Assembly (NCBI GenBank): GCA_037130865.1
Contig: JBAXSG010000001.1
Span: 41,429 to 105,428, forward strand
DNA from: Candidatus Tayloriibacteriota bacterium
Lineage (GTDB): Bacteria; Patescibacteriota; Minisyncoccia; Phycocordibacterales; PALSA-1337
Direction: 5' to 3'
Length of the DNA: 64,000 bases
The notes beneath the pieces were generated by a model that made no database searches, was not told the origin of the DNA, and worked only from the letters and a program-made list of their open reading frames with translations. Below, one piece after another: positions 1,387 to 25,212 of the stretch (position 1 is its first letter; each line of letters begins with the position of its first letter). The position numbers and the translations under genes were made by a program.

Positions 1387-1509
1387 GAATGCACCATAAG
1401 ACTGGCTTGTTTCAAGTATAACATTAAAAACGAAAGAGCCGCGCACAGTTTTTTTGTTTCTGTGCGCGGTCTTGAATGTCAGCGGCTCATTCCATGCCAG
1501 GTGAATAAA

Positions 1510-2148
1510 TCACCGCCGTGCTTTTACGGGTTTTACGGATTCTGCTAGATAAGCCTGAACCATTAAAGCAAAACCACGCTCAATGACGAACTTGTAGCCG
1601 GGGCGATCGTAGGACGCATCTACCCACCGACCACCATCGGCACAGCCAACACGGAGAAAGAACGGGTTGCCTCTGGAATCCTTGACTGAGTCACACATGA
1701 CAACAATCCAATCCAGACCCATCTCCTTAAAGTCCTCATCCGAGAGCGTCTCACGGATTTGGAACAATATTTCAATGTTCGTCTCCAGTGCTTTTCCATA
1801 CTTCAGTCCGCGCTTGTCACCTTCGGCTTGAATGTTCTTGAAGGTGCGGTTACCGTCTTCGAACAGCACCCCTTTCAGCACCGCGATTTCGCGGATGACA
1901 CCAGTCGTCGGCGGCATAACCAGCTTACTGAAAACTTTAGTGGCTGATTTGCTAAAGCGGAAACCCTGATCCATAAGACGCTCTTTCCACTCTGGATATG
2001 TTGTACCGTTAGTGGCAGGAAGTTGGATATAAATTACACCATCAACTTCACGCCAACGCTTTACATGCTCTTTTGCAGCCATGATGATGGCCTTTCTCCG
2101 ACCAGTGGTCGGGATTGTCCTTATACATACGTGATAAGGATTGTTCAA
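1510..2148 (-). CDS. hypothetical protein on an elevated-GC segment, upstream neighbour of the DGR
   Basis: 212-aa ORF with no recognisable motifs. Local GC is visibly higher than the flanking pgk. Start is uncertain (an alternative Met at about 2082). Confidence 0.4.
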   Translation of the reverse strand: MNNPYHVCIRTIPTTGRRKAIIMAAKEHVKRWREVDGVIYIQLPATNGTTYPEWKERLMDQGFRFSKSATKVFSKLVMPPTTGVIREIAVLKGVLFEDGNRTFKNIQAEGDKRGLKYGKALETNIEILFQIRETLSDEDFKEMGLDWIVVMCDSVKDSRGNPFFLRVGCADGGRWVDASYDRPGYKFVIERGFALMVQAYLAESVKPVKARR

Positions 2149-2190
2149 TGTTCTTTACTGTCAATGGTATAGACCTTTTATGACTATCTG

Positions 2191-3273
2191 TCAATGACAT
2201 GAATTCGTCCACAACATTTGAGACTTTCCTGGTAATTGATTATATAACCTTATTTGTTGGCCTAGTTTATAACTATTTCCATGCGAAAGCATACCTAGAT
2301 AAGAGTTAAGCGTGGCCTCATATTTTTCGCTCTTTTCACTATCACCTTCACTATCTATAACTGCCTTTTTAGCCAACAAGTTTCTAAACATCCTCTTCTT
2401 GGTGGTTGTGCGTAAGACGCGATATTTAGGAAAATGAACCCAGCCAAGAAAATCTATACCGGAAGAAACAGTCTCTATCGATACTTTATCGGGATGAAGA
2501 TCCAGTCGCAATTCGCTCTGCAAAAAATCGCGAACTTTCGGGAGAAGACCGGCCAAAACACCTCGGTCATCATGCATAACCAAAAAATCATCGGCGTAGC
2601 GGATGTAATATCTCTGTTTCAGTTCATGTTTAATAAATTGATCCAATTCGTTTAAGTAAATATTTACCAGAAGTTGCGATGTAAGATTCCCAAGTGGCAG
2701 ACCTTTACCAAAACCGCCGGCACCACCAACAGCACCAACGACCTTACCACTAGAAAAACTGGAGATTATTTTCCAAAGCAACCCGAGAGTCGCATCATCC
2801 ACGGTATGCCTTCGTAAAACCCTCATCAAAACTTCATGATCAATAGAAGCGAAGCACTTGCGCACATCACATTTCAAGACCCAACAAGTTCGCCTGTGAT
2901 TTTTCGAAACTTTGCGTGCAAATTGTCTGAAACGATTTAGTGCTTTGTGAGTTCCTTTGAAATCTCTGCATGAATAAGAGTCAAAGATGAATCTCTTATC
3001 AAAAATCGGATACAAAATTCTGTATATAGAGTGATGCAATAATCTGTCACGAACAGTGGCTTTATGTATTATCCTAGTCTTAGGATCATTTATGATAAAA
3101 CTTTCATATAATCCGTGCGCATAGTTGCCATATAACAAATCTCTATATAAATCCGATATATTGCTAGACAGCTTTATTGTAAATTCAGCCACATCGTCTT
3201 TGCGGTTTTTGTCCACCACAAATTCCCGCCAGGCCTTGCATAAATTTTGAAAAGATATAATATCCTCGTACAT
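2191..3273 (-). CDS. diversity-generating retroelement (DGR) reverse transcriptase
   Basis: 360 aa. RT motifs are present: IINDPKTRIIHKATVRDRLLHHSIY (motifs 1/2), GLPLGNLTSQLLVNIYLNELD (motif 4 with the DGR-specific xGNLTSQ signature in place of group-II QGxxxSP) and YIRYADDFLVM (YADD catalytic motif 5). Size and N-terminus (ISFQNLCKAWREF) are typical of DGR RTs. Confidence 0.9.
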   Translation of the reverse strand: MYEDIISFQNLCKAWREFVVDKNRKDDVAEFTIKLSSNISDLYRDLLYGNYAHGLYESFIINDPKTRIIHKATVRDRLLHHSIYRILYPIFDKRFIFDSYSCRDFKGTHKALNRFRQFARKVSKNHRRTCWVLKCDVRKCFASIDHEVLMRVLRRHTVDDATLGLLWKIISSFSSGKVVGAVGGAGGFGKGLPLGNLTSQLLVNIYLNELDQFIKHELKQRYYIRYADDFLVMHDDRGVLAGLLPKVRDFLQSELRLDLHPDKVSIETVSSGIDFLGWVHFPKYRVLRTTTKKRMFRNLLAKKAVIDSEGDSEKSEKYEATLNSYLGMLSHGNSYKLGQQIRLYNQLPGKSQMLWTNSCH

Positions 3274-3332
3274 ATGAATTTAACTCAAAATCAAAATCTT
3301 TCTCATAGTACCCCCCCCGCAAAACGCCACAA

Positions 3333-3698
3333 GTGCTTTTGAAAGAGAAAGTGGTATACCGATCGTGGATATCGCTTCATAGGAATTTTCCGCGAATAGA
3401 AAGATTGGGTATTGGCCAAAAGATAGAGGCCTCTTTTCTGGATATTCTCGAATATACTTTCGTAGCAATGTATCTGGCATCTGACCAGAAAATTCTGATG
3501 CTCAGTAAAACCATAGCCAAACTAGATAAATTGAAATTTTTCATGCAAATAGCGTGGGAAAATAAACTCATACCAGAAGAAAAATATGCCCAGATATCGC
3601 TGGATCTTGAAGAGATTGGCCGCCAACTCGGCGGTTGGAGAAAGGGGTTGCAAACATCCGACCCAACGAAAACTCCCACCACAGGACAAGCCGCGTAG
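3333..3698 (+). CDS. avd: DGR accessory variability determinant (Avd-like four-helix bundle, 23S rRNA-IVS protein family)
   Basis: 121 aa from a GTG start. FPRIERLGIGQKIEASFLDILEYTFVA ... LEEIGRQLGGWRKGLQ aligns along its length with Bordetella phage bAvd (IPRKHGVAREMFLKCLLGQVELFIVA ... IAEVGRILGSWIARVNRKGQ). It lies between the RT and the TR but on the opposite strand. Confidence 0.72.
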   Translation: MLLKEKVVYRSWISLHRNFPRIERLGIGQKIEASFLDILEYTFVAMYLASDQKILMLSKTIAKLDKLKFFMQIAWENKLIPEEKYAQISLDLEEIGRQLGGWRKGLQTSDPTKTPTTGQAA

Positions 3699-3712
3699 TA
3701 GGAGAAATGGTA

Positions 3713-3830
3713 AGTTTCGGAACCACGATGCGATTCCTGTTCTCGGCGTTCCACACATTGTCGTTCAAGAAGCGGTTCACGTTCACCTTGGGAGCTCCAT
3801 CGGAGTCCAGATTCACGTTCGCGACGAAGA
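3713..3830 (-). repeat. DGR template repeat (TR)
   Basis: 118-nt segment homologous to 4163-4280. The conceptual translation VNLDSDGAPKVNVNRFLNDNVWNAENRNRIVVPKLT is rich in AAC/AAT codons. Every TR/VR difference falls on a minus-strand adenine of the TR. Confidence 0.85.
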
Positions 3831-4146
3831 AAATATGCAATAAACCATCCGTTACACCATCGGCCAAATCATGACCGATTGAATTTCATTTGGGACATAG
3901 AAGTCCGCCAGTTCATTGCACCAACTGACTATTTTTTGTTAATAGGAATACATCCACTCTCCTGCAAGACGTATCCGGCAGAATTCTCGAATGTATTTCT
4001 TCACAAGCGTGGCGCGGAAGCCTTGGCCGCCGCACATTCAGACTTGTGATGCTACTATAACAAAATCACCCCAACCTGTGGAGTGCCATCTTTTTCAGAC
4101 GGCACACCACAAGGGTCAGAGTGATTGATAGTCAGAGCGTCAAGCG

Positions 4147-4836
4147 CTAAGACTCGAGGGTCAGTTGCGGAACCACGATGCGACTCCTGCCCTCGGCGTA
4201 CCACACAATGCCGCACAAGAAGCGGTACACGTGCACCTTGGGAGCCCCATCGGAGTCCAGATCCACGCGCGCGACGAAGAGTTCACCATTGGCTTCGAAT
4301 AGGAAGAGCGTCCAGAAGTCTGTGCTGAGCCACTTGTGGTGGTTCTTCACAAACTGGATGATCTGAGGCTGTGGGAGGCACAGCTTTTTCGAATCCTCCG
4401 ACAAACTATCGAAGATTTTTTGATAGTTGCCGTTCTTGATGAGTTCATGAACAGCAACGTTCGTTTCCTTCGTCGGTTCGCTCTTCACATCGCAACCCCA
4501 GTTCTTGAAGTCGCAGTCGATGCCCCAGGTGAAAACTTTCTCTGCCCGAGCAATAGTCTCCTTGCCATCGGTTGGTTTGAGCGTGATGGTTTCCGCGCCC
4601 GAGATGAGCTTAAGGCAACCGCTCACGTTCTCGGTGATTTCTGCAAGCTTCTTCTTCACCGCTTCCATGACCACGGTTTTGAGTTCATTGCCGCGCTCCA
4701 CGAGTTTCTGAATGTTGTCACCGTTGATGACATCATTCTTTTCGAGGTCTTGGATCGCCTCCTCGGTGGCTTTACGAGCTGCCGATGTTGCGACTGTTAC
4801 GACTTGTTCTTTCTGACCAGATGTAATCGGTTTCAT
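4147..4836 (-). CDS. DGR target (variable) protein with a C-terminal VR-encoded ligand-binding segment
   Basis: 229 aa. The C-terminus ...FVARVDLDSDGAPKVHVYRFLCGIVWYAEGRSRIVVPQLTLES* is the diversified copy of the TR-encoded peptide (N->R/D/H/Y/C/I/Y/G/S, D->G, K->Q). There is no obvious N-terminal signal peptide. A ribosome-binding site AAAGGA lies 9 nt upstream of the ATG. Confidence 0.8.
   Translation of the reverse strand: MKPITSGQKEQVVTVATSAARKATEEAIQDLEKNDVINGDNIQKLVERGNELKTVVMEAVKKKLAEITENVSGCLKLISGAETITLKPTDGKETIARAEKVFTWGIDCDFKNWGCDVKSEPTKETNVAVHELIKNGNYQKIFDSLSEDSKKLCLPQPQIIQFVKNHHKWLSTDFWTLFLFEANGELFVARVDLDSDGAPKVHVYRFLCGIVWYAEGRSRIVVPQLTLES
4163..4280 (-). repeat. DGR variable repeat (VR) inside the 3-prime end of the target gene
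   Basis: Offset exactly 450 nt from the TR. There are 15 mismatches to the TR within 3731-3820 versus 4181-4270, all plus-strand T in the TR changed to C/A/G in the VR (adenine-specific on the coding strand). The 3-prime flank (4150-4170) is GC-rich and shows non-adenine mismatches to the TR (IMH versus IMH*-like). Confidence 0.85.
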
Positions 4837-5031
4837 GCCGTTATCATCCTTTCTTTATACGGCTTTCGGCCGGCCGTTGACTAACCTTCATTGGTTTCGC
4901 CACAGCAGACAGTTGCCATCGACATTAACCAAAATAGTTAACATCCTAGCCACTTTCTGCCATGGCGAAAATCGCATTTTATGTTCATTTCCGCAATATT
5001 CAAGGTGCTTTTACTACCCAATAGTATACAC

Positions 5032-5802
5032 CTAAATAGAGACTCTGTCAACCTCTTTTATAAGCTCCACAAATCCAGGAATATTTACACTTTCGCGGCC
5101 GACAAGAAGACCATCGACTTTTCCGATAGTGATAATGTCCGGCGCATTGCGGTATGTCACAGAACCACCATAGAGCACTGTAACTTTGAGACCCATATCG
5201 GCACCATAGAGATCAGCGAAAACTTTTTTAATGAAAAGCGAAGTCTCGTAAACATCTTCTGGCTTCATAGCTTCCGCGGCGCCGATAGCCCAGATTGGCT
5301 CATAAGCAACTATTATTGACTTGGCTGACTTCTTCAATATATCTCCACAACTGGCCTTGATCTGATCTTTCAGAAAACCTAGATACGCGCCGCTTTCATC
5401 GCGAACGGATTCTCCTATGCAAAGTATCGGCGTCAAACCTTGACCAAGTACCGCTTTCAAACGTGCCGCGACTGTTTCGTTGGTGTCGCCGCGCTTGCGC
5501 TGCTCCGAATGTCCAACGATGACATATTCAACTCCAATATCACGCAACATGTGCGCTCCAACTTCACCTGTATGTGGCCCACCTTCTTCTTGAGTAGAGA
5601 CCGTCTGCGCACCCATGTGAAAATGAGCAATCTTCTTGCGAGATGCGCAAGCTGTAATAAATGGCAATGGCGGACAGATCACGACTTCTGTATTGGCTAA
5701 GGCGGGTGCTGCGCGCTTGAATTTGTGCGAAAGTTTCTTGGCCTCAGCGAGCGTGGCTGGGTTCATTTTCCAGTTTCCGACTACTAGTTTTTTGTTAGTC
5801 AT
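5032..5802 (-). CDS. tpiA: triosephosphate isomerase
   Basis: MTNKKLVVGNWKMNPATLAEAKKL... has the canonical TIM N-terminus (GNWKMN) and catalytic residues. The ATG at 5802 is preferred over the ORF start at 5823. Confidence 0.92.
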   Translation of the reverse strand: MTNKKLVVGNWKMNPATLAEAKKLSHKFKRAAPALANTEVVICPPLPFITACASRKKIAHFHMGAQTVSTQEEGGPHTGEVGAHMLRDIGVEYVIVGHSEQRKRGDTNETVAARLKAVLGQGLTPILCIGESVRDESGAYLGFLKDQIKASCGDILKKSAKSIIVAYEPIWAIGAAEAMKPEDVYETSLFIKKVFADLYGADMGLKVTVLYGGSVTYRNAPDIITIGKVDGLLVGRESVNIPGFVELIKEVDRVSI

Positions 5803-5854: not shown

Positions 5855-7174
5855 TTATCTCACCTCCTTCCATGAAATCATCTTATATTGATTGCCCTGA
5901 CTTCCTCCTTGTTTGATTATTGGGAAATATGGAGGTGGATTGCCAGCCAGATTCACATCATAAGCGATATTACGAGCTGTATAAGCTGTACCGTCTGTAT
6001 AAGTAAATCCAAATTTCTTATTTGTGGCTATAGAACCATTTAGCGTAAGTGTCGAACGATGAGAATAATCTATACCATCTACTCTACAAGCAGATGGATA
6101 GAAAAATCTACCGACGCGACCATTTTCTGCTATAAGAGCTCCATCTATATGCAAAGAATCAGCGCTGACTAAACCGATATTTATATTCTCCTTGGCAATA
6201 AGTCCAAGAGCTTCGGTGTTATCGTATTTTATGTACGACAAATCTGAATTGACTGTTATATTATTTGCAGCAATCGTAAGTCTTGAGCCGTCTATAGTGC
6301 CGTCGACCCAAACATCATCATTGAAAAATAGAAGACCTTGAACTGGTAAAGTATATGTGCCGAGAAAACTCTGTGAGTGAATACTCCAAGTACCCCAACC
6401 GGCTGTAGCACTGGAACATCCAGCAGGTGCTGCGACCAACTCTGTCACTGTATATAAGGTAAATGTATCATCTTGATTTAAGGCGATATGATATCCGTAT
6501 GCAGGACTTTCATCGTATTGGGATCTTGCATAATAAGTACCACTACTACTTGCGACCGTCTGAAGTCCTTGAAAATCAGCACCAAGCCCAGAAAAATCCA
6601 CCACTGTGACCGGCGCTTGCTTACCAGCATAGAAAACACCTGATCCATCTACTGCAGTGGCGCTCGAGATAATATTATTTGCGATTCCATTGAAGTGGAT
6701 GACTCCATTTGCCATGACTGGTCCAGAGGTTTCAGTATCGAATGAAAATATAAGACCATCATTTGAGACTATGGCGTATTTTGTAAATGTTGGAAGACCG
6801 AACACAGCTTCGATAGTGCGAGAGATCTTCGAACTATTCAAATCCACACTCCCTTTCGAACTAACAGATATCTTGGTCGAACCAACGGTTGTCGGAGCTA
6901 CTTCTAGTACATAATTTCCGAGAATATTACCGTCTTTATCGAAAAAATCTTGCTTATATGTGTGTGTTTGATTATCACTGGTAATATTGGCGATATTTCC
7001 TCTAAACGAACTGAGACCAGCCTCTGCAATCTCAAAAGCTTGCTCGCTCTTGACCGCCATCCTTGCATTTACGATCAAGGTCGCGCCCCAATTTACCAAA
7101 CCAATAACCATAGTCACCGCTACAGCAGCAAAAACCAAAACACTTACGAGTATATCTCCTCGAATTGTCATCAT
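5855..7174 (-). CDS. type IV pilus minor pilin / tip-associated protein, PilX-like (large)
   Basis: The N-terminus MMTIRGDILVSVLVFAAVAVTMVIGL is a hydrophobic prepilin-like helix, followed by AVKSEQAFEIAEAGL (PilX_N-like). It is the last gene of the pilB-pilC-pilin operon. Start is taken at the internal ATG-ATG at 7174 and is uncertain. Confidence 0.55.
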   Translation of the reverse strand: MMTIRGDILVSVLVFAAVAVTMVIGLVNWGATLIVNARMAVKSEQAFEIAEAGLSSFRGNIANITSDNQTHTYKQDFFDKDGNILGNYVLEVAPTTVGSTKISVSSKGSVDLNSSKISRTIEAVFGLPTFTKYAIVSNDGLIFSFDTETSGPVMANGVIHFNGIANNIISSATAVDGSGVFYAGKQAPVTVVDFSGLGADFQGLQTVASSSGTYYARSQYDESPAYGYHIALNQDDTFTLYTVTELVAAPAGCSSATAGWGTWSIHSQSFLGTYTLPVQGLLFFNDDVWVDGTIDGSRLTIAANNITVNSDLSYIKYDNTEALGLIAKENINIGLVSADSLHIDGALIAENGRVGRFFYPSACRVDGIDYSHRSTLTLNGSIATNKKFGFTYTDGTAYTARNIAYDVNLAGNPPPYFPIIKQGGSQGNQYKMISWKEVR

Positions 7175-7217
7175 GTATGCAGTTTTTTGCGATGATATTA
7201 TCTTCATATATTTATAT

Positions 7218-7667
7218 TCATAAATTGCGTAGCTGTACAAAAGCAGAGTAAGAAGCAATCGTTATCCGTACAAAACGCACAGCCGATATGTCTGTAGTGG
7301 TGGCGTCGTTACCATCGAAGTATAAGAATGAAGCCACGGAATCATAAACTATAGGTTCTGGTATACCATCGGCATTTGTATCTGAGAAAAATCTGATCGT
7401 ACTAGACCCAATAGCCGTAAGTGGGTATGCCCCACTTGGTGGTGCTGACATCTGACGCATTTCTCTTGAAATCTTTTTCAAAACTATTTGTGAACTCTGT
7501 GATACATCAAATGATCCTGATATAGATTTCTGATATGAAAATATATTAACTTCAAAAGTTGTGATCGCTACCATAATTACAAGGAATATTGAAAGTGCGA
7601 CTAGGGTTTCAACTAGAGTCATACCTCTCGTATTTTGACTATTTTGATTTTTGGGATGAAATAACAT
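7218..7667 (-). CDS. type IV prepilin / pseudopilin
   Basis: Class III signal peptide ...NTRG|MTLVETLVALSIFLVIMVAI with Glu at +5. Confidence 0.75.
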   Translation of the reverse strand: MLFHPKNQNSQNTRGMTLVETLVALSIFLVIMVAITTFEVNIFSYQKSISGSFDVSQSSQIVLKKISREMRQMSAPPSGAYPLTAIGSSTIRFFSDTNADGIPEPIVYDSVASFLYFDGNDATTTDISAVRFVRITIASYSAFVQLRNL

Positions 7668-7672
7668 AATAT

Positions 7673-8122
7673 CTATATTGATGTCGGTGTCACCTCTCCA
7701 GTCAAAACAATCGGTGTGAAATTCTTACAAGACGCGCATGAAACACTTACTTCCACGAGTTTACTGACGATAGTACCTCCTGTAGAAAATGGCGATTGCG
7801 CATTTTCATCGCGAATATACAAAGCTACAGTAAATGGTACGCCTCCTCGAACTACCTCTTGTCTCGCAGACAAAATCCCATGTGGAATCCCATCGACTAA
7901 ACCAACATCTATATATGACATACCGCGCACTATCTCTAACTGCTCACTTGCCAGAGCCAAGGCCAACAATTTTGTTTGATTCGCTCGCGCTACTTGAAAT
8001 AAGCTGGTATAGGCACTATATGCGGCTATCGCCACCACTAGAAAAAGTGCTGAACCAACAACCACTTCTATGAGAGAGAAGCCTCTTCGTGAAATCTCCT
8101 GTTGTGAGTTTTTGTGTGACAT
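7673..8122 (-). CDS. type IV prepilin / pseudopilin
   Basis: ...EISRRG|FSLIEVVVGSALFLVVAIAAY prepilin leader and cleavage motif. The start at Met 8122 avoids overlap with pilC; the ORF track gives 8137. Confidence 0.75.
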   Translation of the reverse strand: MSHKNSQQEISRRGFSLIEVVVGSALFLVVAIAAYSAYTSLFQVARANQTKLLALALASEQLEIVRGMSYIDVGLVDGIPHGILSARQEVVRGGVPFTVALYIRDENAQSPFSTGGTIVSKLVEVSVSCASCKNFTPIVLTGEVTPTSI

Positions 8123-8126
8123 TGAA

Positions 8127-9359
8127 CTAGATAACATTCACAAGTGAATACATCGGTGAGATCATAGAGATAGCAAAGAAAGCAACAGCAGCACCTATAA
8201 AGACGATCAGGAATGGCTCAATAATCGTAGACATGTCCTTGGTCTTTTGTTCAACATCTTCTTCATAATAATGAGCCACACCTGATAGCATATCCGCAAC
8301 CTTACCAGTCTCTTCACCAACACTTAACATCTCTGCCAAGAAAACCGGATAAGTTTTCGTATTTTCAGAAAAAATCTTCGACATCGAGTCTCCTTTACTT
8401 ATGGCTGTACGAGCTTTTATCAAGACAGATCTGAAGTGGACGTTTTGCACAACAGATGCAGTTATCTCCAGAGAATCGACTACACCAACACCGGATTTCA
8501 TAAGCGAAGATAGAGTACGGGCGGTGCGAGCAGCATTGATCTCTTGGACCAGGGATCCTATAAGTGGTATTTTCAAAATCATCGCATGTACCACTGCCTT
8601 ACCAGATGCACGCTTCGACCATAGATATATAGTGCCGCCAACAATCACCAAGATTATAGCTACAAATAGGCCATGATAACGAATAGCGTCGCTGATATTC
8701 AGGAGAATTCTGGTCGAGATCGGTAAAGCTACATTCAAATCCAGGAAAGTCTTCATCAAGGTTGGTACCACGAATATAAACATGAGTACACCGACAATAA
8801 GCATCACTCCGATTATGACTGCTGGATACAACATAGCTCCGCGAATGCGTCTCTCCAATTCATAAGAGCTCTCTAGCTGCGCAGCCAATATATGTAGAGA
8901 CTCAGCCAGATTTCCTCCTTGTTCACCAGCATGAACCATCGATACAAAGAGTGGTGAAAATACTTTCGGATATGCTACCAATGCTTTTGCAAGAGTTTGC
9001 CCGCCATCAACACTGGTATTTATATCTACTAGGACCTTTTTCAAACTAGCATTTCTGGCCTCCTTGATGATTACCCCCAAAGCGCGTGAAAGTGGTAGTC
9101 CGGCTTCTAACATCGATCCCAAATTCCTGGCCATATTTATCTTTTCTATAGGTTTTACTCTGCCAGATAAGAAAGGTATGTTTATATTCAGTTTGAAGAA
9201 ATCAGCACCAAAGACAGAGTTCTTCTTTTCTTTTACAGAAATAACTTCAGTACCATCTTCGCGCAACATATGATAAAGATCATAACGATCTTTCGCTTCT
9301 TTCACAGAAGAATATACTTCGCCGCTAGATTTTTTGGCTTTGAAAATGAATTTGGACAT
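8127..9359 (-). CDS. pilC: type IV pilus assembly platform protein PilC (GspF family)
   Basis: 410-aa polytopic membrane protein with the two GspF repeats (e.g. ...GLPLSRALGV..., ...LLESGVPILEAL-type segments) and three TM regions. It sits immediately downstream of pilB. Confidence 0.88.
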   Translation of the reverse strand: MSKFIFKAKKSSGEVYSSVKEAKDRYDLYHMLREDGTEVISVKEKKNSVFGADFFKLNINIPFLSGRVKPIEKINMARNLGSMLEAGLPLSRALGVIIKEARNASLKKVLVDINTSVDGGQTLAKALVAYPKVFSPLFVSMVHAGEQGGNLAESLHILAAQLESSYELERRIRGAMLYPAVIIGVMLIVGVLMFIFVVPTLMKTFLDLNVALPISTRILLNISDAIRYHGLFVAIILVIVGGTIYLWSKRASGKAVVHAMILKIPLIGSLVQEINAARTARTLSSLMKSGVGVVDSLEITASVVQNVHFRSVLIKARTAISKGDSMSKIFSENTKTYPVFLAEMLSVGEETGKVADMLSGVAHYYEEDVEQKTKDMSTIIEPFLIVFIGAAVAFFAISMISPMYSLVNVI

Positions 9360-22795: not shown

Positions 22796-22801
22796 TGGTT
22801 G

Positions 22802-22872
22802 TGCGGGATGCGGGAGTCGAACCCGCGACATTTGTTTGGAAAACAAAAATTTTACCGTTAAACTAATCCCGC
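22802..22872 (-). tRNA. tRNA-Gly (anticodon TCC), no encoded CCA
   Basis: Reverse complement is GCGGGAT...TTTGT-TTTCCAA-ACAAA...GCGGGTTCGACTCCCGC-ATCCCGC-A. It has a 7-bp acceptor stem, a T-arm GGTTCGA and an A/T-rich D-arm. Confidence 0.82.
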
Positions 22873-22877
22873 GAGCC

Positions 22878-23552
22878 TCACTTTTCTAGAACACGGTCAA
22901 TCGTAGCAAGTATTTTCCTATGTAACAAGACGCCGAGTTCTTTGTCACCATAACTTTTTACACCAAGATGAGCTGTCCCAAATGGTAAGATCCCCGCTTT
23001 TTTTGTCTTCTTATTGAGACGACGGTCGATATAACATGGTAAGAAAGAACTTTTTGGTATCTTTAATTGTCTGACCCAAAATTGCAGCGCAGCATCTTCG
23101 TCACTATCGGGATATATATGAAGCCTAACTCTTATATTTGTATTGGGTACATTGAAACATTTATTTAGCCAAATGATTGAAAACCTAATTATCCTTGGAT
23201 CAGCATTAACTATTCTCAAAATATTGTGGGTCTTACTACCCTCTCCAATATAGATGCCAACGCCGAGCAGGAATAAGTCTCTGTGAGATAGTTTGCCAAT
23301 CATTCCCTCTGCATACCTATCTGCTTCAATAAGAGACCGGATTTTATCTACTCTTTTACCTACAACGCCCATCTTTTGGCCTTTAAGAATTGATTGTTTA
23401 GTTGTTTCGTTTGGCAAAAAATCAACATTTCTTAACCAACAACTTAGGGTGCTTTTCGAGACATTCAATTTTTGTGATATATAGCCATAAGCAAAACCCT
23501 TCTTACGGTAACCAATGGCTCGCTTTTTCAGTGCATACGAATACATATGCAC
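22878..23552 (-). CDS. HTH + LAGLIDADG-like (homing-endonuclease-like) protein
   Basis: N-terminal HTH (GYISQKLNVSKSTLSCWLRN) followed by two degenerate LAGLIDADG-like blocks (DLFLLGVGIYIGEGSK and ...FGTAHLGVKSYGDKELGVL). Its stop is 5 nt from the 5-prime end of tRNA-Gly. Confidence 0.45.
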   Translation of the reverse strand: MHMYSYALKKRAIGYRKKGFAYGYISQKLNVSKSTLSCWLRNVDFLPNETTKQSILKGQKMGVVGKRVDKIRSLIEADRYAEGMIGKLSHRDLFLLGVGIYIGEGSKTHNILRIVNADPRIIRFSIIWLNKCFNVPNTNIRVRLHIYPDSDEDAALQFWVRQLKIPKSSFLPCYIDRRLNKKTKKAGILPFGTAHLGVKSYGDKELGVLLHRKILATIDRVLEK

Positions 23553-23597
23553 TAATTATATCAGACCAGATGTGGTTCGTGCAATTCTTAAATTAAT

Positions 23598-24113
23598 TTA
23601 CCCCCTCTTTTCATCCGGATGATGAACAGCGTGTTCGTGCTCCATAACCTCTTTTATTTCATCTATTTCTTCTTTGATTATCTTCAGATCAACAATATCT
23701 TGCTCCATCTTTATCTCATCAACTTCTTTCTTCATTTCTTTTATGGTCGCTCTCATTCCCTTCAATTCCGCCTCCTCTTCTTCAACCTCTTTCTCTGTCT
23801 TTTCTGTTGTCTTTTTCTGCTTTTTAAGACCACTCATAAGTATCGTGTCACCTATAAAGTATGAAACGAATAGTCCGGTCATGAGCAAAACTATTGTCAT
23901 GATCACTAAGTTGTTCGGCTCATAGAAAATCAACTCCAACCAACCACCTTTGGCTTGTAAGATATCTGCTGTATGCCACACTCCCCTCCAGAAAAGCACT
24001 ATAGCCACACCACCGATGATTGTATAGATTATTGGATATTGACTCAAGTGTTCACGCACATGATCTTCGAGTTTATCGAAAAACCAGACTATTTTTTTGA
24101 ACAATGAAATCAT
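23598..24113 (-). CDS. hypothetical membrane protein with an acidic coiled-coil tail
   Basis: Two TM helices, then an EEEA/KEVDEIK-rich C-terminus ending in HEHAVHHPDEKRG. Confidence 0.4.
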   Translation of the reverse strand: MISLFKKIVWFFDKLEDHVREHLSQYPIIYTIIGGVAIVLFWRGVWHTADILQAKGGWLELIFYEPNNLVIMTIVLLMTGLFVSYFIGDTILMSGLKKQKKTTEKTEKEVEEEEAELKGMRATIKEMKKEVDEIKMEQDIVDLKIIKEEIDEIKEVMEHEHAVHHPDEKRG

Positions 24114-24152
24114 CTTTGTATTTTTTATCTTTCTCTGAAGAAACTCTTACCT

Positions 24153-24227
24153 GTCGGGGCGCCGGGATTCGAACCCGGAGTCACCTCTTCCCAAAAGAGG
24201 CATGTTAGCCGTTACACCACGCCCCGA
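24153..24227 (-). tRNA. tRNA-Pro (anticodon TGG), no encoded CCA
   Basis: Reverse complement ...CCTCT-TTTGGGA-AGAGG...CCGGGTTCGAATCCCGG-CGCCCCGA. Anticodon loop TTTGGGA. Confidence 0.8.
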
Positions 24228-24281
24228 AATATCCCTATTCCACTACAAACTAACTGTCGCATTATCGTAGCATAAAACATT

Positions 24282-24725
24282 CTATAAGACTAGATTTTTT
24301 AACCATTTTACATGTGCGAGACGAGTTCCTTTGTCCATATAGACGCAAAGTACATGAAATTGAAATTCTGACTCTGCTCCCCTACCAGACACCTCACTAC
24401 TCCTTTGCCCAAATTCTGCCATATATGTCTGAATCATTCGACGGATCTGCCTTAACTTGAAATTATGGACATTTTCTTCTGGTTCATGTCCGTTTGGATG
24501 ATTTCTCTGTACTGTCACACTCTTCACCTCAAAAAAGTGTAGAGTTGCTGATGTTGCACGTGAAACATCACTAGACTCGCGCGCAATAATATCTATCTCG
24601 CCCCATTTCTTGCGATAATTCCTCGCAGTAATGATAAAGCCCTTCTTCTCCAAAAACTTACAAGCTATATCCTCACCTATGTTTCCTATTGATCTTGTGC
24701 TCATAAATATTTTCTTAGAATCCAT
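24282..24725 (-). CDS. yraN: YraN/UPF0102-family endonuclease-like protein
   Basis: GNIGEDIACKFLEKKGFIITARNYRKKWGEIDIIA matches the YraN signature (GxxGExxAxxxLxxxGxxIxxRNxRxxxGEIDLIA). Confidence 0.7.
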   Translation of the reverse strand: MDSKKIFMSTRSIGNIGEDIACKFLEKKGFIITARNYRKKWGEIDIIARESSDVSRATSATLHFFEVKSVTVQRNHPNGHEPEENVHNFKLRQIRRMIQTYMAEFGQRSSEVSGRGAESEFQFHVLCVYMDKGTRLAHVKWLKNLVL

Positions 24726-24956
24726 ATTTTCAACACATTTTCAGTGACTTTTAAACTGTCTTATCCCAAAATCCACTGGCTGAGCCACAACAAGAAAAGA
24801 CATCATAAAATACACAAAAACTACGATAATTAGCCGTTTTTTATGTCTTTTATAGACAGCATCCACAGACTTATCCACAGTTTCTGTTTATACACTTATA
24901 CGATTAGCCATTCGTAAAGGAAAAACAGACAAGGACATATAAAGGCCAATGAAGTG

Positions 24957-25027
24957 TGCGGGTAGGGAGAATCGAACTCCCACCTCGTCCTTGGCAAGGA
25001 CGCGTCCTACCATTAAACAATACCCGC
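24957..25027 (-). tRNA. tRNA-Gly (anticodon GCC), no encoded CCA
   Basis: Reverse complement GCGGGTA...CGTCC-TTGCCAA-GGACG...GGGAGTTCGATTCTCCC-TACCCGC-A. Confidence 0.86.
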
Positions 25028-25140
25028 AATTATATATGTAATGACCTTAAAAATCTGACGTGCTTCAGTATAGCGCAACTTTCATTTTTTACAAAATCTT
25101 CTCACATAAATAAACTATCATCGTATCAACTGTTACCGTG

Positions 25141-25212
25141 TGCCCCCGGAGGGACTCGAACCCCCAACATCAGTTCCGAAGACTGGTGTGATATCCATTT
25201 CACCACGAGGGC
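25141..25212 (-). tRNA. tRNA-Arg (anticodon TCG), no encoded CCA
   Basis: Reverse complement GCCCTCG-TG-GTGA-AATGGATA-TCAC-A-CCAGT-CTTCGGA-ACTGA-TGTT-GGGGG-TTCGAGT-CCCTC-CGGGGGC-A. The cloverleaf folds with one mismatch in the anticodon stem. Confidence 0.72.

Follow-up and report, generated by a model that had tools for sequence, protein, structure and literature searches.

A chromosomal diversity-generating retroelement of Candidatus Taylorbacteria and a conserved structured RNA predicted upstream of its template repeat

RESULTS

Organization of the locus

The DNA analyzed here, hereafter called the window, is a stretch of 64,000 nucleotides from a Candidatus Tayloriibacteriota bacterium (assembly GCA_037130865.1, contig JBAXSG010000001.1, positions 41,429 to 105,428 of the forward strand), and all positions are counted from its first letter. 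At 2191–4836, between tpiA and pgk of this Candidatus Taylorbacteria genome, lies what is very probably a complete chromosomal diversity-generating retroelement (DGR) of the type found in Patescibacteria, or candidate phyla radiation (CPR). Read along the − strand, the cassette begins with a target gene that carries a variable repeat (VR) at its C-terminal end, followed by a predicted terminator, a predicted promoter, a structured RNA of ~220 nt, the template repeat (TR), and a stem-loop with a U-tract. After these come avd, on the opposite strand, and then the reverse transcriptase (RT) gene. The genes, the repeats and the sites attached to them were as follows.

2191–3273, − strand: DGR reverse transcriptase, 360 aa, with LGNLTSQ and YADD (open reading frame [ORF], profile and sequence matches)
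3333–3698, + strand: avd accessory gene, 121 aa, antisense to TR, RT and target, and divergent from RT
3713–3830, − strand: TR, 118 nt, with 30 adenines and nine AAY codons
4147–4836, − strand: target (variable-protein) gene, 229 aa, with a helical N-terminal part (residues ~6–67) and a C-terminal alpha/beta domain containing the VR
4162–4170, − strand: VR 3′ boundary motif CCGCAACTG, resembling an initiation of mutagenic homing (IMH) site, with TR counterpart CCGAAACTT; its CGCAA is conserved in VRs across target families
4163–4280, − strand: VR, encoding residues ~186–225 and ending 14 nt before the stop codon
5023–5051, − strand: promoter-like site upstream of the target (TTGACA, 17 nt, TATACT), a consensus match only, at 11 of 12 positions

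A preliminary description, made from the sequence alone, had proposed a complete DGR with RT, Avd, TR and a VR in a target gene. Repeat comparison, profile matches and matches to sequences of solved structures, detailed below, confirmed this proposal and supported its interpretation. The Avd-like protein was likewise borne out by profile matches, but its position on the opposite strand had been missed, as had the RNA elements between VR and TR.

The template and variable repeats

Direct comparison aligned TR and VR without gaps at an offset of 450, over 118 nt and with 15 mismatches. In the RT-proximal copy, each of the 15 corresponds to a + strand T, and hence to an A of the coding − strand; 8 are T>C, 4 T>A and 3 T>G. 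With 30 T among the 118 bases of this copy, a hypergeometric calculation gave a probability of 4e-11 for all 15 landing on T. Homology continued for another 4 nt, as far as 3709/4159; the single mismatch there, at 3712, is not at an A. A repeat search returned this pair as the largest repeat of the region, and BLASTN found no further copy of TR or VR in the 64 kb. Twelve codons differed within the repeat, 11 of them nonsynonymously, and nine of these 11 encode Asn (AAC/AAT) in the TR. Indeed, every one of the nine AAY codons of the TR was changed in the VR, which occupies the 3′ end of the target gene. The preliminary description had listed the same pair (3713–3830 and 4163–4280), with 15 differences on coding-strand adenines of the RT-proximal copy and Asn in the template at nine of 11 changed codons. 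We reproduced each of these counts, with AAC or AAT at all nine, and the tabulation of mismatches by base, set beforehand as a test that could refute the DGR reading, returned a single base only.

That description had further read the pattern as the signature of mutagenic retrohoming. The A-only mismatches agree with it, but one of the 15 has to be set apart. At 3717/4167 the TR has A and the VR has C (CCGAAACT against CCGCAACT). Since a difference of this type recurred in most loci with a TR A at that position, and the TR itself carried C in 25 of 55 scored loci, we regard 3717/4167 as a fixed, clade-wide 3′ boundary difference rather than as a product of random A mutagenesis. At this boundary, VRs read CGCAA in essentially all loci, and TRs read either CGAAA (in the window's family and many others) or CGCAA. 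The motif held across differing target families and reading frames.

Set beside the features by which DGRs are recognized, the cassette thus had TR-adenine differences at 15 of 15 mismatches and a VR with AAY codons at the 3′ end of the target. For the IMH/IMH* pair, it showed the fixed CGCAA/CGAAA boundary and no GC-rich IMH of the type of Bordetella phage BPP-1. For the hairpin expected 3′ of the VR, it showed a strong hairpin starting ~20 nt after the stop codon and terminator-like in character.

The reverse transcriptase and Avd

As stated in the preliminary description, the RT is a 360-aa protein with GNLTSQ and YADD motifs, the former present as LPLGNLTSQ. It matched Pfam RVT_1, and its best match among all solved structures was PDB chain 8ub7_A (E 9.5e-40, residues 3–317), the sequence of which is that of Brt from BPP-1. 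A direct BLASTP comparison with the brt gene product of AY029185 gave 31% identity over the full length (E 8e-48). RTs of group II introns matched at 1e-14 to 2e-11 and those of retrons at ~1e-4 or worse. The check on RT grouping that had been suggested therefore came out clearly in favor of Brt, and by similarity search the RT is assigned to the DGR clade.

A possibility was that the repeat pair is an ordinary diverged duplication that happens to lie beside an unrelated RT, from a group II intron or a retron. The NCBIfam profiles spoke for it, and against a DGR: none passed on the RT, and the top match was the group II intron RT/maturase TIGR04416 (137.7 bits against a cutoff of 300), with weaker retron matches (52.6 bits against a cutoff of 235 for the retron St85 RT model) and Drt matches, all below cutoffs. 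The avd product also stayed below the cutoff of NCBIfam DivGenRetAVD (E 2.7e-16, 59.8 bits against 80). The duplication reading was nevertheless refuted, and we give it next to no chance. It fails to accommodate mismatches confined to one base (p = 4e-11), a bias that recurred in ~70 related loci, or Brt as by far the best solved-structure match of the RT. Nor does it accommodate the presence of Avd, whose match to Pfam bAvd PF22296 passed the cutoff (E 1.4e-12, 48.5 bits against 40). Finally, Rfam returned no group II intron or retron RNA over 1400–5200 at E ≤ 1, and with the RT below the cutoffs of both families, nothing identified the locus as belonging to either.

The target gene

A hypothetical protein encoded in a Candidatus Taylorbacteria metagenome-assembled genome (MAG) matched the target at 100% identity. 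The target had 159 homologues of ~230 aa, and all the named ones came from Patescibacteria. Pfam and NCBIfam, run on the target and 68 family members, gave sub-threshold noise only. In the family alignment a scaffold, FFVAxVxxxxxGxLxVxVxRFSxxxVWxAExRxRVVVPQL, was conserved, in which the x positions coincide with the Asn codons of the TR, and the variable columns fell at the same C-terminal positions throughout the target family. AlphaFold2 models of the target reached a predicted local distance difference test score (pLDDT) of 91 with the family alignment and of 92.5 in a second model, and a Foldseek search of the target model against the PDB gave no match. Judging from the models, the C-terminal domain probably has a C-type lectin fold, though a very divergent one. 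This is the fold that Roux et al. expected for uncharacterised CPR targets (PMC8144416), and the nearest known variable proteins are the C-type-lectin-fold proteins Mtd and Treponema TvpA (PDB 2Y3C).

Relatives and the fate of the cassette

Target-based searches yielded 38 genome loci, all of them in Patescibacteria MAGs. In 23 of the 38, referred to below as the family loci, we found the target, a gap of ~300 nt, the TR, an antisense avd and the RT, in this order, and their TR/VR mismatches were nearly all at TR adenines. An RT-based metagenome scan returned more than 591 relatives, and we retained 80 of them. In these RT-selected loci, avd was antisense in all 55 that had at least 950 nt upstream of the RT. 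The cassette with A-specific TR/VR mismatches recurred in ~45, where 816 of 873 mismatches lay at TR adenines, and the targets belonged to several different VR families. In four loci (L022, L023, L089 and L118) we noticed two target paralogues or two VRs that match a single TR, one of the two being located 3′ of the RT or on the opposite strand.

The closest relative, L004–L006, occupies the same tpiA-[DGR]-pgk site, with a target 78% and an RT 83% identical to those of the window. The stretch just downstream of the VR was 98–100% identical between L004 and the window. The two VRs differed at 17 positions, 15 of which were TR-adenine positions (p = 4e-9). In L004–L006, ~110 nt of unrelated sequence replaces the TR, the 3′ hairpin and avd (~6985–7130; window ~3290–3830). 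What remains is the target with its terminator, the promoter, the 5′ RNA domain in full and an RT that is still intact.

All parts of the cassette are intact in the window. RT, avd and target are uninterrupted ORFs, the catalytic YADD is present, and the promoter box, all RNA helices, the TR and the hairpins agree with the family consensus. Moreover, nine of nine AAY codons differ from the TR, and two lineages with near-identical flanks have VRs that differ at A sites. These observations argue against the view that the cassette is a fossil DGR, in which the VR/TR differences were left by past homing and the target is no longer diversified. We consider this view unlikely, although several points lend it weight. 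The target protein cluster at ≥90% identity consists of one sequence, and another relative, L024, has a single TR/VR mismatch. Above all, L004–L006 is a disabled DGR, and such cassettes do decay, since the nearest relative has lost TR and avd while keeping its RT. Lastly, the case for activity here is built on VR differences between lineages, and diversification at present is no more than probable.

Identity to L004 was mosaic over 3837–5077. From 5077 to 4637, covering the target promoter and the first 67 codons, it was mostly 98–100%, with 50-nt windows dipping once to 78% and once to 90%, and from 4186 to 3837, from the 3′ end of the VR to the 5′ RNA, it was 94–100%. Over the lectin-like scaffold (4636–4287) it was ~50–82%, and for tpiA, RT and pgk 82–85%. 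This suggests that cassette segments recombined recently between lineages.

The spacer between the target and the TR

The target stop codon and the TR stand 316 nt apart in the window and 297–377 nt apart in 23 of 23 family loci, and the sequence between them was conserved. The following elements were predicted in this spacer, all on the − strand.

4058–4126, − strand: hairpin with a T-run, 3′ of the target stop codon (DNA fold −26 kcal/mol, z = −4.5; terminator-like match)
4054–4082, − strand: predicted TR-RNA promoter (TCCACA, 17 nt, TG-extended TATAGT), with the −10 box TATAGT at 4054–4059
3831–4053, − strand: conserved structured 5′ domain of the TR RNA, made of P1, P2, a linker and P3, as delineated by covariation
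4012–4035, − strand: P1, a stem of ~9 bp with a bulge
3945–3999, − strand: P2
3920–3944, − strand: single-stranded linker
3837–3919, − strand: P3, with hairpins at 3893–3906 and 3859–3879 and a 10-bp closing helix that ends 6 nt before the TR

The hairpin with its T-run (CTCTGACCC…GGGGGATTTT) was conserved in 23 loci. It is probably an intrinsic terminator, and possibly also serves as the DGR hairpin that follows the VR. A −10 box, tgTATAcT, was conserved in the 23 family loci, and 36 of 37 RT-selected loci had a −10-like box immediately before the RNA.

RNAalifold, run on the family loci, predicted 49 pairs, 42 of which were backed by compensatory changes. In the alignment, 94.6% of cells were paired, against 42–47% with partners slid, and the covariation score was 0.61, against 0.12–0.17 when slid; none of 500 shuffles scored as high. 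From the same 23 loci we built two covariance models, R1 and R2, and ran them on the independent RT-selected loci. The 3′ half (linker and P3) was found in 61 of the 80, always on the RT strand and just upstream of the TR, and the 5′ half (P1 and P2) in 38 of the 80. The resulting alignments were paired at 95.7% and 92.4% of cells (30–48% when slid) and scored 0.80 and 0.92 (~0.13 when slid), values that favor the model to some extent because these alignments were fitted to it; 0 of 500 shuffles equaled the covariation score. When only RT-selected loci with enough flanking sequence were counted, the structured RNA was present in 52 of 55, next to targets of various families. The window sequence folded by itself recovered P1, P2, both P3 hairpins and the hairpin 3′ of the TR (z = −3.0). 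Rfam 15, searched over 1400–5200 at E ≤ 1, returned nothing, and in a control the spacer of BPP-1 was found as RF03022 Phage_DGR with 104.7 bits.

In the family alignments, P1 and the inner hairpin of P2 (3960–3983, − strand) both carry GGNUACGNCU at their apex, on top of a G-U pair that does not vary, and this looks like a duplicated protein-binding module. A small protein encoded in the spacer was also considered and rejected, as the candidate frames were not conserved in frame, strand or length.

The region downstream of the TR and its predicted pairing with the linker

Three further elements were delineated around the TR, the last two of which would form a long-range duplex.

3669–3704, − strand: stem-loop with a U-tract after the TR, overlapping the last avd codons of the other strand
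3923–3934, − strand: linker strand AAAUAGUCAGUU, proposed to be primer-like, followed by a near-invariant GGUG
3705–3716, − strand: 3′ end of the TR with its flank, AACUUACCAUUU, which complements the linker strand

In the 23 family loci, and in 62 of the 63 loci examined, the TR was followed by a short linker and then by a stem-loop with UUUU after it. The one at 3669–3704 may be the terminator of the TR RNA, a protein-binding stem-loop, or both. Its use as a bidirectional terminator that would also serve avd was rejected, there being no U-run after the hairpin on the avd strand. Among the family loci, only 14–66 nt separate the TR from avd. This leaves no room for a spacer like that of BPP-1, unless the RNA runs antisense into avd.

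The complementarity between linker and flank was first spotted by inspecting sequence classes and then subjected to permutation tests. In the window, AAAUAGUCAGUU (3934–3923) faces AACUUACCAUUU (3716–3705). Across loci, linker and flank fell into classes that change together: AUGAAGA occurs with UCUUCAU, AAAGAAA with UUUCUUU, and CAGAGA with UCUC. The mean RNAduplex energy was −7.13 kcal/mol for cognate pairs, against −5.26 kcal/mol for non-cognate ones, and 0 of 10000 permutations did as well. The register was then fixed by two anchors, the boundary G and the G that precedes GUG. In this test, positions 2, 3 and 5 were paired in 78–100% of loci. Positions 4, 7, 8, 10, 11 and 12 were paired with their own partner more often than with permuted partners (p ≤ 0.005), each through several Watson-Crick types. 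The register ends at the TR/VR homology boundary. The linker strand covaries with the 3′ flank of the TR, and this suggests a permuted DGR RNA.

Neighboring genes

Between RT and pgk, a 212-aa ORF (1510–2148, − strand) had no Pfam or NCBIfam match. By tblastn, it was homologous (E down to 1e-28) to VR-bearing targets in five CPR DGR loci (L107, L087, L077, L086 and L063). It had no matching TR in the 64 kb, was absent from the syntenic L004 and showed no similarity to the target by BLASTP. From these comparisons, we take it to be an orphan, a remote or fossil DGR target of a second family.

Directly upstream of tpiA, at 5855–9359 and beyond (− strand), lies a cluster resembling those of type IV pili or type II secretion systems, with a 467-aa protein, two pseudopilin-like proteins and a GspF-like protein; a relative also has a GspE-like ATPase. 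Its adjacency may be incidental, since the DGR target has no pilin-type N-terminus. Further away, four tRNA genes at 22801–25212 (− strand; Gly-TCC, Pro-TGG, Gly-GCC and Arg-TCG) are unrelated to the DGR.

DISCUSSION

A typical CPR element

Architecture B3 of Wu et al., that is, TR-(avd)-RT with avd on the reverse strand, makes up 90% of their CPR set and is almost never seen elsewhere (PMC5758913), and Roux et al. placed the DGRs of Patescibacteria in an RT clade of their own, clade 2 (PMC8144416). The element of the window shares with CPR B3 DGRs the gene order, the antisense avd, the location on a Patescibacteria chromosome, the small unannotated target with a C-terminal VR, and the A-specific mutagenesis. 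Nothing in the element itself departs from this class. Given its B3 layout and the grouping of Patescibacteria DGRs in clade 2, it is an ordinary member, one more CPR B3 DGR.

DGRs have been catalogued by the thousand in Patescibacteria. To our knowledge, however, all biochemical and structural understanding of DGR reverse transcription comes from one phage element, whose essential RNA lies 3′ of the template. The commonest class in CPR cells has avd in that very place. This gives its interest to the RNA found here on the other side of the TR.

A candidate permuted DGR RNA

We propose tentatively that CPR B3 DGRs use a circularly permuted DGR RNA, in which a domain that recruits RT and Avd and a strand that sets the start of synthesis both lie 5′ of the TR, P3 provides the stop, and a stem-loop forms the end. 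By our own estimate this reading, drawn in part by analogy, falls a little short of being probable.

According to this proposal, a TR RNA of ~385 nt would be made from its own promoter, as the conserved −10 boxes and hairpins suggest, and would fold into P1, P2 and P3 together with the long-range duplex 3923–3934:3705–3716, a fold shown by covariation. RT and Avd would copy the TR into cDNA and misincorporate opposite adenines, a step modeled on their homology to Brt and Avd and on the A-only pattern of mismatches. The cDNA would then replace the VR and recode up to nine Asn codons and a few others that contain A, in keeping with the TR/VR pattern and the differences between lineages, and the recoded residues would lie on one face of the divergent C-type-lectin-like domain. 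By analogy with BPP-1, cDNA synthesis may start at G3718 of the conserved CG, which would be the first templating base: the last paired bases of the linker, followed by GGUG, would abut this CG. TR bases 3′ of G3718, including A3717, would in that case never be transferred, and this could explain why the C of the VR is fixed. At the other end, the closing helix of P3, 6 nt short of the TR, might act as a natural stop.

Several observations weigh against this proposal. The promoter and terminator of the TR RNA are predictions, and so are the priming site and the stop. Within the linker:flank duplex, position 6 was usually unpaired and position 1 was G-C in only 45% of loci. Moreover, when the 5′ domain was joined to the 3′ tail, RNAalifold found no cross pairs in the minimum-free-energy consensus.

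As an alternative, the conserved 5′ RNA may have no part in reverse transcription and may act instead as a leader, in stability or regulation, or as a small RNA in its own right. Priming would then proceed, as in BPP-1, from sequences 3′ of the TR, namely the stem-loop and antisense-avd RNA made by read-through. For many DGRs, those of CPR among them, Handa et al. predicted stem-loops that bind Avd immediately 3′ of the TR, together with duplexes between upstream and downstream sequences; the sequence they surveyed reached no further than 40 nt upstream of the TR and 100 nt downstream (bioRxiv 10.1101/2023.10.23.563531). A conserved stem-loop does follow the TR here, and the priming role given to the linker is an analogy only. 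Yet this stem-loop is followed by a U-tract, and only ~45 nt lie between TR and avd. Besides, the RNA was present between promoter and TR in 52 of the 55 RT-selected loci, regardless of target family. The register in which its linker covaries with the 3′ flank of the TR is fixed and stops at the homology boundary, and the Rfam Phage_DGR model, which finds the BPP-1 spacer, found nothing in the window. We hold this alternative to be rather unlikely.

The RNA delineated here, with its predicted promoter, three helical domains, linker and terminal stem-loop, provides a construct of ~385 nt and explicit compensatory mutations for reconstituting a CPR DGR in vitro. Its signature in sequence and structure could also help to locate TRs, and to tell which way a DGR cassette runs, when metagenome contigs are fragmentary. 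Judged by Rfam 15 and the literature cited here, this RNA family appears to be undescribed: Wu 2018, Roux 2021, Weinberg 2017, Handa 2024 and Paul & Eren 2022 contain no description of the 5′ RNA domain, the promoter and terminators or the linker:flank duplex, text searches for an RNA reported 5′ of the TR in CPR DGRs gave nothing, and an earlier description elsewhere is possible.

Comparison with BPP-1 and Phage_DGR RNA

In BPP-1, cryo-electron microscopy and mutagenesis have shown that a primer strand, Sp47–56, pairs with TR117–129, and that synthesis starts at TR G117 from the internal A56, the G after which is essential. Sequences on either side of the TR pair to form a stop duplex, and an 11-bp stem-loop with a UNCG tetraloop binds Avd (bioRxiv 10.1101/2023.10.23.563531). 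The window element and BPP-1 (mtd-avd-TR-brt) have in common homologous RTs (31% identity), Avd, mismatches restricted to A and centered on AAY codons, and a VR at the 3′ end of the target that is followed by a hairpin. In both, the 3′ end of the TR pairs, or is predicted to pair, with a strand that does not belong to the copied part of the TR. The TR is 118 nt long here and 134 nt in BPP-1.

The two elements differ in where these parts stand. In the window, avd is antisense and lies between TR and RT. The spacer RNA of ~140 nt that follows the TR in BPP-1, which is the RNA recognized by Rfam Phage_DGR, is absent, and the window has instead the structured RNA of ~220 nt with a primer-like strand upstream of the TR and a single stem-loop downstream. 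Its TR RNA would have a promoter of its own, predicted after the terminator of the target. Finally, the GC-rich 14-bp IMH is missing, and the boundary motif is CGCAA in VRs against CGAAA or CGCAA in TRs.

Rfam RF03022 Phage_DGR corresponds to the RT-10 motif of Weinberg et al. 2017 (PMC5737381). Like the RNA described here, it is a structured non-coding RNA attached to the TR. The apex of the BPP-1 stem-loop is GCUACGGCUU and the P1 consensus here is GGCUACGGCUU, on a tetraloop-capped stem of ~9 bp. This apical likeness is short and could be due to chance, and the P1 loop of the window is CAAG, not UACG. The two RNAs differ in that the window gave no match to RF03022 at E ≤ 1, in the P1, P2 and P3 architecture of the RNA described here, and in its location on the opposite side of the TR.

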